Positions 1-7,644 of a DNA stretch of 24,983 nucleotides are shown here, in pieces. The position numbers and the translations under genes were made by a program. The stretch's first letter is position 1. Each line of letters opens with the position of its first letter. Location: NCBI GenBank assembly GCA_003455565.1, contig DMQW01000461.1, positions 1 through 24,983 on the forward strand, read 5' to 3'. Source of the stretch: Limisphaerales bacterium (GTDB taxonomy: Bacteria; Verrucomicrobiota; Verrucomicrobiia; Limisphaerales; UBA11358). The notes under the pieces were generated by a model. It saw only the letters and a program-made list of their open reading frames with translations. It searched no databases and was not told where the DNA came from.

Positions 1-769
<769 letters not shown>

Positions 770-919: not shown

Positions 920-1798
920 TCAAACGCCGCGCTGTTCCGGTGGCCAGATGATTTTGTGCTGCTGGATTTGAAAACGGACGGGCAGGGCGTCGGCGATGAT
1001 TTTTTCCGCGAGTTCGCGGCGCGAAATCGGCGTGAGGCCGGCGGGAACTTTTTTGAGCGCCTTGCTCTGCTGTTCCGGCGCGAGCGGATGCACCCAGGAA
1101 AACAGCAGCGGACAAATGGAATCCAGTTTGTGCGCGGCGATCTGCTGTTTGGCCCATTCGTAATCTTCAACCGTGCCGATGACGAATTTGATTTCGTCGG
1201 TGGCTTTCAGGTGCGCGATGTTTTCAAAACAATTGCGCGCGACTTCGCCGCTGGCGGGGCATTTCAAATCCATGATGCGGCGGACGCGCGGGTCAATTTT
1301 TGAAATGTCATGCGCGCCGCTGGTTTCAATCAAAACGGTGAAACCGTCGTCGCAGAGCAATTTCATCAGCGGCAGAGAATTTTTCTGGAGCAACGGTTCG
1401 CCGCCGGTGAGTTCCACAAGCGGGAGGCGCAAAATCTCATTAACACCGGGCTTCAGCCCGGTGATAGACGCCGCTCCGCCTGCAACCGCTTCAGCGGTTG
1501 GTCCGATGCGGAAAGCCGTTGAAACGGCTGGGGATCGCTCCGTTCGCGCTGTCACCGGGCTGAAGCCCGGTGTTAAGGAGAGGTGTTTGCCGTGAAATGG
1601 GCCGGCCCGTCGCCGAACTCCTTTCAAGATTTCCGCGAGCGTTCTTTTTTTACCTTCGGTGAAGGCATACGCGGTGTCGCAATACGAGCAGCGCAGATCG
1701 CAGGCGGTGAGCCGGATGAAAACGCACGGCAGCCCGGCAAAGGTGCTTTCGCCTTGCAGGCTCAAATAAATTTCGTTGACGACGAGCGTGTCGGACAC
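920..1798 (-). CDS. queE: 7-carboxy-7-deazaguanine synthase QueE-like radical SAM protein with an in-frame 49-aa repeat-derived insert
   Basis: NEIYLSLQGES, FIRLTACDLRCSYCDT (CxxxCxxC), LTGGEPLLQ, IETSG, MDLKCP, QIQQHKIIW. Start moved from 1825 (TTG) to GTG 1798 to match the usual N-terminus and a -10 box 6 nt upstream. Confidence 0.88.
   Translation of the reverse strand: MSDTLVVNEIYLSLQGESTFAGLPCVFIRLTACDLRCSYCDTAYAFTEGKKRTLAEILKGVRRRAGPFHGKHLSLTPGFSPVTARTERSPAVSTAFRIGPTAEAVAGGAASITGLKPGVNEILRLPLVELTGGEPLLQKNSLPLMKLLCDDGFTVLIETSGAHDISKIDPRVRRIMDLKCPASGEVARNCFENIAHLKATDEIKFVIGTVEDYEWAKQQIAAHKLDSICPLLFSWVHPLAPEQQSKALKKVPAGLTPISRRELAEKIIADALPVRFQIQQHKIIWPPEQRGV
1435..1581. mobile_element. 147-nt MITE/REP-like palindromic element inside queE
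   Basis: 25-bp perfect terminal inverted repeats (1440-1464 / 1552-1576), 29/30 when extended to 1435/1581. Each arm is itself a hairpin. Two internal hairpins at 1483-1500 and 1514-1529. Mobility is inferred, not shown. Confidence 0.8.
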
Positions 1799-1804
1799 AC
1801 GGGC

Positions 1805-1810
1805 AGTGTA
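1805..1810 (-). promoter_or_regulatory. Putative -10 box (TACACT) 6 nt upstream of the queE GTG
   Basis: Minus strand reads TACACT-gcccgt-GTG TCC GAC. No Shine-Dalgarno sequence and no clear -35. Confidence 0.5.
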
Positions 1811-1899
1811 GCGGGTCGGCGGCAAAAGGGAATATGCACCTTTGATTTCCAGGCAGGATAAGCTATGGTTGGCTTGGAAAATTCCCTTTAATCAGAAAC

Positions 1900-3486
1900 A
1901 TGAGCAACCTGTTGAAACGAAAAACCGCGCTGGTTTTCATTTTTATTCTGTTTTTCAGCGTAGTGGTTCAAGCTGCGAGCCTCGACACCATCGGCGTCAC
2001 GTTGTTGCGAGCAGTGACGACCAACCTTAATGGTGCGGGCATCAGTGTCGGACAGGCGGAGGCGGGATACGAATCGGCGACCAATTGGCAGGTCAATCCG
2101 GGCGCCGTCGGTCAACCAAGCAGTCTGTTCACTTATTTCTACGGCACGCCGCCTTATGTGCTGGTGAGCAGCGCAAACACTTATCCCAACTCGCTGGGCG
2201 GGCCATCGGGACACGCCAACAATGTGGCGGGAAATTATTTTGGCAGGTCCGGTGGCGTGGCCACGAATGTGGCGCAGGTGAACAATTACGAGGCGGACAC
2301 CTTCATCAACCACTACATCAGTCTGGGGAACACGATTTCCGAACGCGTGGTGAACCAGAGTTTCACTTACGGCACAAACGACGCGAGCGCGGATCAAAGT
2401 TATGACAATTATGCGGCGGCGAACAACGTGCTTTTTGTCAGCGGCGCGGGATTCAACGGCCAGCAGGTTTATTCACCGGCCACCTGCTACAATGGGATCG
2501 GCGTAGGCGTTTCCGATAATTCCAGCACGCCTTACGGGCCGACGCCTGATGGCCGGAGCAAACCGGACATCGTCGCACCCGGTTCGCCAGACACCGTCAC
2601 GAGCTATACCACGCCGCTGGTCTCGGGTGCGGCGGCGTTGCTGATGCAGGCCGGATTGCGCGGTGATGGGGGCAGCGACACCAGTGCAGCCGTGGATATC
2701 CGCACCTTGAAAGCGTTGCTGTTGAACGGCGCCATCAAGCCGGCGGGCTGGACGAATTCCCCCGCTACTCCGCTTCATCCGCTTTATGGCGCGGGCGTAT
2801 TGAACGTGTTCAATTCCTATAAACAACTGGCGGGCGGCAAACGCAGTTACATCGTTTCTACAAGCGTTGCCACCGGCAATCCGCATCCGCCCACCGGCGC
2901 GACCGGCACCGTGAGCGTGTTGAGCGGCTGGGATTTCAACACGCTTTCCAGCAGCGTTCCGAATGACAAGATGAACCATTATTATTTCAACGTCACGAGT
3001 GGCGCCAGCAATGCGCCGTTCACCGTCACGGCCACGCTCGTCTGGAATCGCCAGCAAAACCAGAGCGGCATCAACAACCTCGATCTGTTTTTGTATGACA
3101 CCGCCAACAGCAATCTGGTCGCGTGCAGCACGAGCCTCGTGGACAACGTCGAACACATCTTCGTGCCGAAGCTCGCGCCAGGCCGTTACGATTTGCAGGT
3201 CTGGAAAGCGGGCGGGATTGGCACCGTCAGTAGTTCGGAAACCTACGCGCTGGCGTGGGCGTTTGTCGCGCCGACGTTGAGCATTGCAAAATCCGCCACG
3301 AACATTGCCTTGACGTGGCCGGTTTATCCGGCGGGTTTTCGTGTTGAAGCGGCGACGAATCTGGTATCGCCCGTCTGGAGCACCAACAATCTTTCGTCGC
3401 CCGTCATCACGAACAGCCTGAACAGCCTGATGCTGAATGCGACGAATGCCCAACAATTTTTCCGCCTGCGCCAGCCGGATTTTTGA
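1900..3486 (+). CDS. Secreted S8 subtilisin-like peptidase with atypical catalytic residues, a beta-rich middle domain and a C-terminal FFRL domain
   Basis: Signal peptide (KRK, hydrophobic stretch, VQA). Motifs GAGISVGQAE, GHANNVAG, VVNQSF, GRSKPDIVAPG, TSYTTPLVSGAAALL, LKALLLNGA, YGAGVLN, TLVW...LDLFL. Confidence 0.85.
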   Translation: MSNLLKRKTALVFIFILFFSVVVQAASLDTIGVTLLRAVTTNLNGAGISVGQAEAGYESATNWQVNPGAVGQPSSLFTYFYGTPPYVLVSSANTYPNSLGGPSGHANNVAGNYFGRSGGVATNVAQVNNYEADTFINHYISLGNTISERVVNQSFTYGTNDASADQSYDNYAAANNVLFVSGAGFNGQQVYSPATCYNGIGVGVSDNSSTPYGPTPDGRSKPDIVAPGSPDTVTSYTTPLVSGAAALLMQAGLRGDGGSDTSAAVDIRTLKALLLNGAIKPAGWTNSPATPLHPLYGAGVLNVFNSYKQLAGGKRSYIVSTSVATGNPHPPTGATGTVSVLSGWDFNTLSSSVPNDKMNHYYFNVTSGASNAPFTVTATLVWNRQQNQSGINNLDLFLYDTANSNLVACSTSLVDNVEHIFVPKLAPGRYDLQVWKAGGIGTVSSSETYALAWAFVAPTLSIAKSATNIALTWPVYPAGFRVEAATNLVSPVWSTNNLSSPVITNSLNSLMLNATNAQQFFRLRQPDF

Positions 3487-4300
3487 GCGTATCCAGCGAA
3501 ACCTGGCCGAGTGCGAAATGGTTTCCGATGCGATAACTATCGGCGATGGCTGACGTGACGAAATGTTTTCCCAGCTCGACCGCGTGCGGCAAATTATGGC
3601 CGAGCGCGAGCGCGGCGCAAATCGCGGCGGAATAAGTGCAGCCGGTGCCGTGCGTGCGGACGCCTTTGACGAACGGGGCGGATAAGAGCAGTTCCGTCTC
3701 GCCGTCAAAAAAAATGTCCACGGCCTCGGTGAAATTTTTCAAGTGACCGCCTTTCAATAAAACCGCGCAGCCGAAGCGCGAAAAAATTTCCCGCGCCGCG
3801 CCGCGCATGGCTTCAATGGAAGAAATTTTTTGTCCGGCCAGAATTTCTGCCTCATCCAAATTTGGGGTGACGAGCGCGGCGAGCGGCAAAAGTTTTTCCG
3901 TGAGAATTTTTATTGCCGCCGGTTCCAGCAGTTTTGCGCCGCTGGTGGAAATCATCAGCGGATCAACGATGAGTTTTAAGTTTTTAGTTTTTAATTTTAA
4001 GTTGCGGAAAAAATCTGCGACGACGGAAATATTTTTTGCCGAGAACAACATTCCGGTTTTTACCGCCGCCGGATTCAATTCTTCAAACACCGCTTCAAGC
4101 TGTTGCCGCAACATTTTCGGCGAACACGGTTCAACGGCAAGCACGCGCTTGGGATTTTGCGCGGTGAGGCAGGCGATGACGCTCGCGCCGTGGACACCGA
4201 GCGCGACGAAAGTTTTCAGGTCGGCTTGGATGCCTGCGCCGCCGCCGCTGTCGGAACCGGCGATGGTGAGGGCGACGGGCAATTTTTTTCTCTTGATCAT
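3407..4300 (-). CDS. thiD: Hydroxymethylpyrimidine/phosphomethylpyrimidine kinase
   Basis: [56 protein letters not shown]. Confidence 0.95.
3974..4001 (+). repeat. Degenerate heptamer tandem repeat x4 inside thiD (encodes [10 protein letters not shown])
   Basis: TTTTAAG TTTTTAG TTTTTAA TTTTAAG. Confidence 0.8.
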
Positions 4301-6375: not shown

Positions 6376-7644
6376 ATGAAAAAAATATTTATCTCTGCCG
6401 GGCTGGCGGCGGTTAGCGCCGCTGGATTTGAAACTGTTTTTGCGGCAGCGCCGGATGCGCTTTCGCCAAAGGATTGGAACGTGTCGGGGACGCTGCGTGG
6501 GTTTTATGATGACAATTACGCGGTGGGCGGTAATCAAAAGGGCAGTTTTGGTCTGGAGGTTTTGCCGACAATTTCTCTCAATGTTCCCTTGCAGCAGACC
6601 GAATTTGGTTTGCGCTACACTTACGGTCTTTTCTATTACCAACAGCGGCAAGATATGGGGGTTGACGCGTTTGACCAGACGCATCAGATGGAATTATGGC
6701 TGGATCATGCGTTCAATGAGCGCTGGCGGGCAAATGTCACCGATTCATTTGCGATTGGTCAGGAACCGCAATTGTTGGATCCCCAACAATCGGTTCCATA
6801 CCGTATTGAGGGCGATAACATGGCCAACCACGCCAACTTCACTTTGAACACGGAATGGACGCGCCTGTTGAGCACCGCGTTCCATTACGGAAATGATTTC
6901 TACGACTATCAAAACAGCGGGGGAAATGCAAGCGCTCCCAGCTATGCGGGGATTCTGAATCGGGATGAGCAAAACGTGTCGCTGGATTTCCAGTGGACCA
7001 TCCAGCCGGAGACCATGGCCTTTATTGGATATAATTTTAATCTGGTGAATTACACCGGAGGCGAGCAGATAGCGGTTGATCTCAACGGGGTGCCCTACAT
7101 GAGCGATTCGCGCGATCTCATGTCGCACACCGCTTACGTTGGCGTCAACCATCAGTTCACGGCCAATATCAGCGGTATGGTGAAGGGCGGTGTGACCTAC
7201 ACGGACAGCTATAACGATTCTCGCAATTCCACGTCCTTGTCGCCCTACGCGGATTTGTCAGTCAGCTACACCTACATTCCCGGCAGTTATGTTCAGGTTG
7301 GTTTGACGCACCAAATCAATGCGACGGATGTGGTGTCGCCAGGTTTAGACGGCAGCCTTACGCAGAATCAGGAAAGCACGGTGGTTTACGCAGACATCAA
7401 CCACCGGTTCACGCCCAAACTGCTCGGGACGGTAATCGGACGTTTTTCGAGTTCAACTTTTAATGGTGGTGCCTACAACAATTCTTCCGACGAGGCTTAT
7501 GGTTTGGGAATCAACCTGAACTACCAGATCAACCGGCATTTTTCTACCGATCTCGGTTACAACTATGATGATCTTGTGTCCGGAATTGCCGGTCGCAGCT
7601 ATGATCGCAACCGGGTTTACATCGGTCTGACCGCAAAGTATTGA
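6376..7644 (+). CDS. Outer-membrane beta-barrel protein of polysaccharide export loci (BBP2/EpsX/VpsM-like)
   Basis: Signal peptide, alternating aromatic/hydrophobic beta-strand pattern throughout, C-terminal NRVYIGLTAKY, position directly upstream of wzc and an OPX gene. Alternative start at 6358 (duplicated MKKIF). Confidence 0.8.
   Translation: MKKIFISAGLAAVSAAGFETVFAAAPDALSPKDWNVSGTLRGFYDDNYAVGGNQKGSFGLEVLPTISLNVPLQQTEFGLRYTYGLFYYQQRQDMGVDAFDQTHQMELWLDHAFNERWRANVTDSFAIGQEPQLLDPQQSVPYRIEGDNMANHANFTLNTEWTRLLSTAFHYGNDFYDYQNSGGNASAPSYAGILNRDEQNVSLDFQWTIQPETMAFIGYNFNLVNYTGGEQIAVDLNGVPYMSDSRDLMSHTAYVGVNHQFTANISGMVKGGVTYTDSYNDSRNSTSLSPYADLSVSYTYIPGSYVQVGLTHQINATDVVSPGLDGSLTQNQESTVVYADINHRFTPKLLGTVIGRFSSSTFNGGAYNNSSDEAYGLGINLNYQINRHFSTDLGYNYDDLVSGIAGRSYDRNRVYIGLTAKY

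Follow-up and report, generated by a model that had tools for sequence, protein, structure and literature searches.

A palindromic insert in the queE gene of a Limisphaerales bacterium as a probable gene-less derivative of an IS200/IS605-superfamily element

Results and Discussion

The window analysed here is a stretch of 24,983 nt of contig DMQW01000461.1, which belongs to the metagenome-assembled genome (MAG) of a Limisphaerales bacterium (GCA_003455565.1; 3.85 Mb, 484 contigs, 81% complete), referred to below as the source genome or G000. Its queE gene, encoding the tRNA-modification enzyme 7-carboxy-7-deazaguanine synthase, contains a 147-nt sequence with four hairpins (H1–H4). We consider it highly probable that this sequence is a gene-less, non-autonomous derivative of an approximately 600-bp element of the IS200/IS605 superfamily, presumably moved in trans by a Y1 transposase, and that the copy in queE is an old one, which sits in a permissive loop of QueE and is translated as a disordered loop. 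In related genomes the same ends surround a Y1 transposase gene; the 147-nt element therefore corresponds to the two ends of that unit without the gene. The features discussed are collected in Table 1.

Table 1. The queE gene and the parts of the element within the window
Feature	Position	Strand	Remarks
queE (7-carboxy-7-deazaguanine synthase), 301 aa	920..1825	-	intact; insert at residues ~82-130; TIGR04349, PF04055, orthologues, core dN/dS
Complete four-hairpin element, 147 nt	1435..1581	.	naked core, without outer shell or target duplication
Left terminus TCTCATTAA	1435..1443	.	family consensus TCTCATTAR; covaries with right terminus (helix 1)
Hairpin H1: CACCGGGC, loop TTCA, GCCCGGTG	1444..1463	.	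8-bp stem; 99.7% of cells paired; G:C/C:G variants 49:47
Hairpin H2: stem CAACCGC, loop TTCA	1483..1500	.	7-bp stem; 99.0% paired; double changes in 4/6 pairs
Hairpin H3: stem AGCCGT, loop TGAA	1514..1529	.	6-bp stem; 99.3% paired
Hairpin H4: CACCGGGC, loop TGAA, GCCCGGTG	1553..1572	.	8-bp stem; 99.6% paired; C:G/G:C variants 51:45
Right terminus TTAAGGAGA	1573..1581	.	family consensus YTAATGAGA; one mismatch in the queE copy

Structure and boundaries of the element

The element has sharp termini, TCTCATTAA and TTAAGGAGA. The arms at its ends (1435-1467 and 1549-1581) form inverted repeats of 33 nt with 94% complementarity, two mismatches and a perfect stretch of 25 nt. An earlier reading made from the sequence alone had described 25-bp perfect terminal repeats, each folding into a hairpin with a TTCA or TGAA loop, and two internal hairpins with loops of the same type; the new measurement and the location of H2 and H3 agree with this description. 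The window contains two occurrences of the H1/H4 motif, where 100 shuffles gave an expectation of 0.00. Single-strand folding of the element gave −59 kcal/mol as DNA and −93 kcal/mol as RNA, with a z-score of about −10 relative to shuffled sequences. On either side, conservation across the whole family sets in sharply with the initial T of TCTCATTAR. Therefore positions 1435-1581, the same as those proposed before, represent exactly one element with its true boundaries. The 147 nt correspond to 49 codons and are free of stops in the frame of the minus-strand open reading frame (ORF) 920..1825, as had been noted. No outer terminal inverted repeat was detected in a search beside the queE copy. 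A search of the element against Rfam returned only chance-level matches (long plant miRNA hairpin models and xerDC) far under the gathering scores, and the assignment to a known RNA family was rejected on these scores.

Autonomous elements with the same ends

The probable origin of the element can be read from copy-rich relatives. In these genomes, Y1 transposase genes are flanked by half-elements corresponding to positions 1-75/89 (terminus, H1 and H2) and 72-149 (H3, H4 and terminus) of the family model. Seven autonomous loci show the same termini and the order H1, H2, ORF, H3, H4 around an ORF of 168-174 aa. The complete units are 594-614 bp long, have the ends TCTCATTAAC...GTTAATGAGA as in the short form, and have no target duplication. 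The encoded proteins (TnpA) contain PDHVHA as HUH motif and YIANQEEHH as tyrosine helix. On the IS200 model NF033573 they score 49-69 bits, exceeding the cut-off of 55 bits in three of the five proteins tested, whereas their scores on the RAYT model NF047646 are 20-30 bits against a cut-off of 80. By score, the enzyme is of the IS200 type and not a RAYT, the mobilising enzyme of REP doublets to which the sequence-only reading had referred.

The linkage between the enzyme and the hairpins is specific to one clade. All seven TnpA genes of the cognate clade (at least 60% identity) are flanked by half-elements, and none of seven distant Y1 paralogues is. The three copy-richest genomes and the genome G076 have the cognate TnpA, and two further genomes have a pseudogene or fragment of it. 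Because the relatives are not independent, this association between TnpA and copy number is a lead and not a statistic. The conserved C-terminal ETVETV of TnpA is encoded by the H3 stretch, as seen in the TnpA alignment, and one TnpA copy ends with TGLKPGVNE, which is the frame of the second half of the QueE insert. A Y1 gene of the IS200 type flanked by such hairpins, which the sequence-only reading had proposed to look for in the genome itself, was found in the related genomes. The source genome contains three Y1 transposase genes, none of them flanked by hairpins with TTCA or TGAA loops. Its element copies look like orphan relics, as no cognate transposase was found in the 81%-complete assembly and the copies are only 72-76% alike.

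The following route can be proposed. The parent element would consist of a left end (terminus, H1 and H2), the gene of the Y1 HUH transposase and a right end (H3, H4 and terminus), of which the short form would retain the two ends only. The Y1 transposase would move the short form in trans by recognising its hairpins in single-stranded DNA and would insert it without target duplication. One copy would have landed in the α1-β2 loop of QueE, which appears to tolerate almost any insert. With a length divisible by three and one stop-free frame, this copy would simply be translated as a loop, and the open frame would in part be the one in which the transposase's own C-terminus is read across H3 and H4.

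Other Y1 genes, in the genome G063 (L285:1422-1998 and L290:1343-1918), are flanked by hairpins of a second type (CCCGGCGT, loop TTCA or TGAA, ACGCCGGG), which has four copies in G000. With the same loop pair and layout, it looks like a sister family.

Hairpin conservation and insertion signature

Conservation and covariation were analysed in 96 copies with a shuffle control (n=500); the counts refer to sequences and not to events. Stems, loops and termini are conserved across the copies, and the three spacers are free in sequence and nearly constant in length. Pairing was found in 98.5% of cells and double-sided changes in 15 pairs, and none of the 500 shuffles reached the observed values. 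In slid controls the pairing collapsed to 23-42%. The central stem pair (14:25 in H1 and 141:152 in H4) is G:C in about half and C:G in about half of the copies and is paired in 96 of 96. The states of H1 and H4 assort almost independently, with 56 copies having the same and 40 a different state. Independent assortment together with perfect pairing implies that selection keeps each local hairpin and not the identity of the two arms, which points to recognition of folded single strands. Subfamily structure inflates the covariation counts, but independent assortment would still be hard to obtain otherwise.

These data also bear on the alternative of a classical MITE (a miniature transposable element with inverted repeats), for which a DDE transposase would recognise the 29-nt terminal inverted repeats (TIRs) as double strand and move the element by cut-and-paste. 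The long TIRs, the size of approximately 150 nt and the covariation of the two termini with each other (helix 1) are what such an element would show, and 14 of 133 copies (about 10%) indeed lie inside a larger element, which has outer inverted repeats of its own and target duplications of 9 bp. Such duplications belong only to the outer shell. The naked cores lack them, so that the combination of TIRs and a target duplication of fixed length, typical of DDE elements, was not found. Furthermore, H1 and H4 diverge in 40 of the 96 copies and yet stay self-complementary, which fits recognition of hairpin structure and not of TIR sequence, and in the full-length elements that end in these termini the encoded enzyme is of the Y1 HUH type and not a DDE transposase. 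A DDE-driven origin of the queE element is accordingly regarded as quite improbable.

No target-site duplication of 1-10 nt was found in 133 copies; for every length, the matches were at or below the shuffled control. The flanks of five autonomous copies share no motif. Comparison with empty sites showed that AcrB and GcvP contain the entire element as insert, in loops whose variability prevents the definition of a target. For the intergenic copies of the source genome, empty sites were sought in the closest species, where the intergenic DNA is approximately 80% identical and no exact junctions were readable.

The queE gene and the insertion site

The sequence of the ORF 920..1825 identifies its product as QueE. 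The protein matches TIGR04349 with 255 bits, the match being divided by the insert into two stretches, as well as the Radical_SAM family PF04055 and the solved QueE structures 6NHL, 4NJG and 5TGS. The score falls under the TIGR04349 cut-off of 300 bits only because of this division. The insert thus pushes QueE under the NCBIfam cut-off, and such genes may be mis-called in annotation. The product contains the cluster motif CxxxCxxC (CDLRCSYC) and LTGGEP with the S-adenosylmethionine-binding motif GGE. In agreement with the sequence-only reading, the insert is placed in frame between the two, namely between CDLRCSYC and LVELTGGEP.

A QueE orthologue was matched in 39 of 40 related genomes, and in all 39 it aligns as two pieces, which shows that the insert is absent and provides the expected empty site. 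The insertion site is the loop between ...APF.. and LPLVELTGGEP, hypervariable in length and sequence. Across 78 species this loop is short, or it is filled by a 21-nt block in which a species-specific heptamer is present three times, by the 147-nt element or by some other insert; a different palindrome is among the latter. At the loci L212 and L240, the loop carries a different insert, ...VGDDVRSL...EPPHV(V/G)SY..., which is the translation of another palindrome; L237, L244, L194 and L258 have further unrelated inserts there.

In the AlphaFold model, the insert residues 85-129 have predicted local distance difference test (pLDDT) values below 50 and are located between the helix 63-77 and the strand 136-141, while the core is modelled confidently. 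The strand following the insert carries the GGE motif. The insert is thus predicted to be a disordered, floppy loop of 49 residues. By the usual topology of the radical-SAM barrel, the beginning of this strand would be located on the barrel face opposite the iron-sulfur cluster. The earlier suggestion of a permissive loop is borne out by the hypervariability of the site and by the low pLDDT, and the structure prediction places it as the α1-β2 loop.

Reality of the insert and its retention

An assembly chimera or a pseudogenised queE has to be considered for a MAG as fragmented and incomplete as this one, the more so as repeats can mis-join contigs and queC was not found. However, the locus is present in contigs from independent soil, peat and permafrost studies, which assemble the same junctions. 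A contig of a peat metagenome covers 1436-1727, that is, the element and 146 nt of queE. Soil contigs running from queE to 1463 and from 1553 into queE each reach only 29 nt across the junction, just under the 31-nt rule of the search. Dozens of independent QueE proteins carry the insert. The ORF is intact with every invariant QueE residue present, and the ratio of non-synonymous to synonymous substitution rates (dN/dS) of the core against the closest relative is 0.035. The source genome has only one queE copy, so that there is no second, intact gene next to a silent one, and it contains tgt, the gene of tRNA-guanine transglycosylase (contig C156). An artefact or a dead gene is therefore exceedingly unlikely.

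Removal of the insert at the RNA or protein level had been put forward as a speculation and finds no support. A contig of an RNA library (metatranscriptome), 95% identical, covers 1517-1730 and shows the insert joined to queE, although a contig is no proof of transcription and DNA carry-over is possible, and no deletion joints at the insert were reported in the searched contigs. Inteins require a certain size and junction features (Cys/Ser/Thr and His-Asn). The junctions of the insert (HLSL.../...VNEILR) are without these features, and its length is 49 aa; by size and junction residues an intein was ruled out.

Copies and distribution of the repeat family

The element is a multi-copy palindromic repeat with a sequence family of its own, as had been supposed. 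The source genome contains eight full and two partial copies, which share only 72-76% identity with each other. Copies are also held by 12 of 60 other sampled genomes of the genus; the closest relative holds none. A scan of public genomes with a strict pattern matched at least 118 contig stretches, and the contig titles of the matches listed place the family in the Verrucomicrobiota (Limisphaerales, Pedosphaera-like). A hidden Markov model search of the fetched loci gave 142 full-length copies of 139-163 nt with a mode of 149 and one outlier of 119 nt. Most copies are intergenic.

Several copies lie on contigs of MAGs labelled as Acidobacteriota (Pyrinomonadaceae, Thermoanaerobaculia; L090, L102, L103, L118, L142, L143, L119, L124, L134 and L135), which may reflect either cross-phylum spread or mis-binning and mislabelling. 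The titles "Klebsiella" and "Bifidobacterium" among the listed matches look like mislabels, judged from the neighbouring entries in the list. Two copies in G000 (C419:1848-1997 and C107:4076-4225) resemble each other in the flanks on either side, and just upstream of each begins a short ORF (MQFVFTTS... and MTFDFKTA...) that continues across the element. This points to a larger unit that has been duplicated or to a small gene derived from the element. Long ORFs across other copies in the source genome, such as a 904-aa ORF on C107, were judged by composition alone to be antisense or spurious.

In-frame inserts in proteins

QueE is not the only protein with such an insert. With the criterion of at least 60 aa on each side of the copy, 18 long ORFs were found to span a copy, and after confirmation of the hosts by Pfam, 12 in-frame inserts in seven protein families remained (near-identical orthologues counted). 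Fusions of the xanthine dehydrogenase (XDH) type carry the insert in three genomes at the interdomain linker between CO_deh_flav_C and the hammerhead domain, and GcvP carries it in two genomes at the linker between its two halves. Further hosts are CCP_MauG (two genomes), an ACR_tran (AcrB-type) pump with two element copies in one protein, a P-type ATPase, PSCyt2/PSD1 and, in another genome, again QueE. Nearly all of these inserts read ...SL[AT]PGFSPV...TGLKPG[AV]NE.

The mean number of open frames per copy is 0.87 of six. This seems to be near chance, and, with copies being mainly intergenic, a special adaptation of the element to coding was rejected. Selection simply keeps in-frame, stop-free insertions. 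The description as a protein-coding repeat like the Rickettsia palindromic elements (RPEs) is thus correct for the repeated in-frame inserts in unrelated, real proteins and does not apply to the family at large.

Age and evolution of the QueE insert

In a protein search, an orthologous insert of 48-50 residues was recovered, intact and in frame in every case, from over 30 distinct clusters of QueE (290-300 aa), and a 96%-identical QueE protein exists in the Logan assemblies. Judged from these sequences, the queE insertion is ancient and common to many lineages and not a recent event in the source genome. The concern that orthologues simply share the 49 aa around a single-copy sequence does not apply: the element is multi-copy and the closest relatives are without the insert, which is shared by more than 30 diverged lineages. 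The insert usually evolves faster than the core (49-74% against 81-89% identity). The insert of the source genome, on the other hand, is 94% identical to inserts of QueE proteins with cores only 82-88% identical. In a tree calculated without the insert region, the source QueE and two other insert-bearing proteins fall into a 99%-supported clade with all 16 insert-free proteins. As the source allele sits in a QueE clade mostly without insert, it may have arrived by recombination.

The dN/dS ratio of the core is 0.035-0.095 and that of the insert 0.35-0.84, indicating that the core is under strong purifying selection and that the insert peptide is nearly unconstrained. The synonymous rate (dS) of the insert is 0.22-0.53 against 1.05-1.40 in the core, three to five times lower in the same comparison. 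The nucleotides of the insert would accordingly be either constrained, through the hairpins, or younger than the surrounding gene, through lateral exchange or gene conversion.

One way to read these values is co-option, with the hairpins acting in situ as an mRNA structure tuning queE or as a live DNA site for excision or gene conversion, or with the loop functioning in the protein. The low dS, the retention of the insert in frame in more than 30 diverged QueE lineages, the better conservation of the hairpin-encoded peptide blocks relative to the spacers, the matching replacement of A:T by C:G in H1 as well as in H4 of L193 and the RNA fold of −93 kcal/mol would all fit. A role at the protein level is contradicted by the dN/dS of the insert and by its low pLDDT. 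Moreover, the hairpins are decaying in several lineages (e.g. P0028, P0043 and P0015), most close relatives do without the insert, and the low dS could also result from recent lateral spread or from gene conversion by other copies. We regard co-option as unlikely.

It is somewhat more plausible, although still doubtful, that the hairpins in queE and other host genes remain subject to nucleic-acid-level selection or turnover by Y1-driven excision, gene conversion, lateral allele exchange or mRNA structure. This would explain the low dS of the insert, the insert allele in an otherwise insert-free clade and the re-colonised loops; permissive loops have repeatedly been re-colonised by different repeat classes such as heptamer blocks and other palindromes. 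If true, the family would be a tractable system for studying how palindromic DNA enters and stays in coding sequence. To our knowledge, the entry and persistence of RPE-type palindromic DNA in coding sequence is still an open question.

Comparison with known systems

Rickettsia provides the best-known cases of housekeeping enzymes with palindromic inserts in frame. RPEs are palindromic multi-copy repeats of about 150 bp, which are found in frame in unrelated housekeeping genes and are translated as extra loops (PMC10969869; background in PMC3733652). The verrucomicrobial family resembles them in size, palindromic structure, copy number and translated in-frame inserts. It differs in the host phylum, in being mostly intergenic and in having an identifiable autonomous Y1 element; its sequence is apparently unrelated as far as can be judged, and the two are likened by behaviour. 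We know of no autonomous Y1 partner or mobilising machinery that has been pinned down for RPEs. The queE insert is therefore a known kind of event, here with the likely mobilising enzyme identified, and the verrucomicrobial family is a new example of it. It extends the same in-frame-insert behaviour to free-living Verrucomicrobia of soil, peat and freshwater. It offers an identifiable autonomous parent, the Y1/IS200-like element of about 600 bp, and, in the transposase's C-terminal frame through the right-end hairpins, a simple reason for the open frame. With many natural filled and empty comparisons in well-understood enzymes (QueE, GcvP, XDH, AcrB-type pump and P-type ATPase), the origin, tolerance and fate of such inserts become directly testable.

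In TIRtrons, the gene of a Y1 transposase (TIRYT) lies between TIRs, some of which are self-complementary, and TIR repeats without the gene also occur in the genome (Di Nocera et al. 2013, PMC3733652). The verrucomicrobial family has this architecture; the comparison is one of architecture and not of the four TIRYT sequence groups. REPtrons combine a RAYT, also a Y1 enzyme, with self-complementary repeats and gene-less dimers, the REPINs (Bertels and Rainey 2011, as cited in PMC3733652). The logic of the REP doublet applies to the verrucomicrobial element. However, its consensus has no GTAG or CGTC tag beside the hairpins, and its enzyme is not a RAYT by score. Unlike REPtrons and TIRtrons, the family has two different hairpins in each end, frequent in-frame protein inserts and up to two close copies of the transposase per genome. 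Small repeats making in-frame fusions with host ORFs are also represented by the QMITEs of Coxiella burnetii and intragenic ERIC and BOX sequences (PMC5896051; PMC10969869). These share the fusions with the present family and differ in sequence family and in the mobilising enzyme, which is different or unknown.

With IS200/IS605 elements and their gene-less derivatives, the palindrome-associated transposable elements, the family has in common a TnpA of the Y1 HUH type, hairpins in a subterminal position at both ends, insertion without target duplication and short forms made of the ends only. Judged from the sequence, the cognate full-length element and the absence of target duplication identify the queE element as IS200/IS605-derived and non-autonomous.

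Several observations weigh against this assignment or are left unexplained by it. Classical IS200/IS605 elements have no terminal inverted repeats, carry hairpins on one strand and insert 3′ of a fixed 4-5-nt target. The ends of the present element are mirror images (29-nt inverted repeats), and no fixed target was seen: there is no conserved 4-5-nt target beside the left end, only a weak C bias at −18/−19. No strain-level pair of filled and empty sites was found. The cognate TnpA was not found in the 81%-complete source genome, where the best Y1 matches are 32-46% identical and unflanked. Given the outer MITE with 9-bp duplications, part of the family's spread used another enzyme. The low dS of the insert (0.22 against 1.07 in the core) does not appear to be explained by a neutral passenger inherited vertically. 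Finally, a search for queC (PF06508) found no match in the assembly, which is 81% complete; this gives no conclusion on the pathway.

The outer shell and other arrangements

The outer MITE has the terminal repeats GGGCGCATCTCAGTTTCTTGCAA; examples are L137:1261-1476, L069:1477-1683 and L122:516-722, with 11 others. The outer repeat also occurs in the source genome (C301, ~6510-6533). Near-identical subfamilies of recent amplification were seen only among the nested copies. Termini paired at distances of 0.4-4.5 kb were considered as a route to the autonomous element and rejected, as they belonged to separate copies. At L133 (4533-4607 and 5062-5140), one element is apparently split into halves by approximately 455 nt of other DNA, too short for a transposase gene. 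At L163:951-3537, two composite copies bracket genes of a family-2 glycosyltransferase and a cytidylyltransferase-like protein in a composite-transposon-like arrangement with no transposase.

Heptanucleotide arrays

Heptanucleotide arrays are the commonest tandem repeat of the source genome, with 293 period-7 arrays of 108 different units against 139 of period 6. Many of the heptanucleotide arrays form 21-nt (7-aa) blocks that keep the reading frame of coding genes. Within the window, GATTGCC is repeated 4.6 times in the aminotransferase ORF 2..769(-) (414-445) and AGTTTTA 4.6 times in the ThiD-like ORF 3407..4300(-) (3972-4003). As a target or footprint of the element the arrays were rejected, as a perfect period-7 run (only perfect runs being considered) occurs in the flanks of 0 of 133 copies. 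Orthologous QueE and GcvP loops carry species-specific heptamers at sites that hold the element in other genomes, and this co-location is best read as a sharing of permissive sites. The arrays recall the STRR repeats of cyanobacteria.

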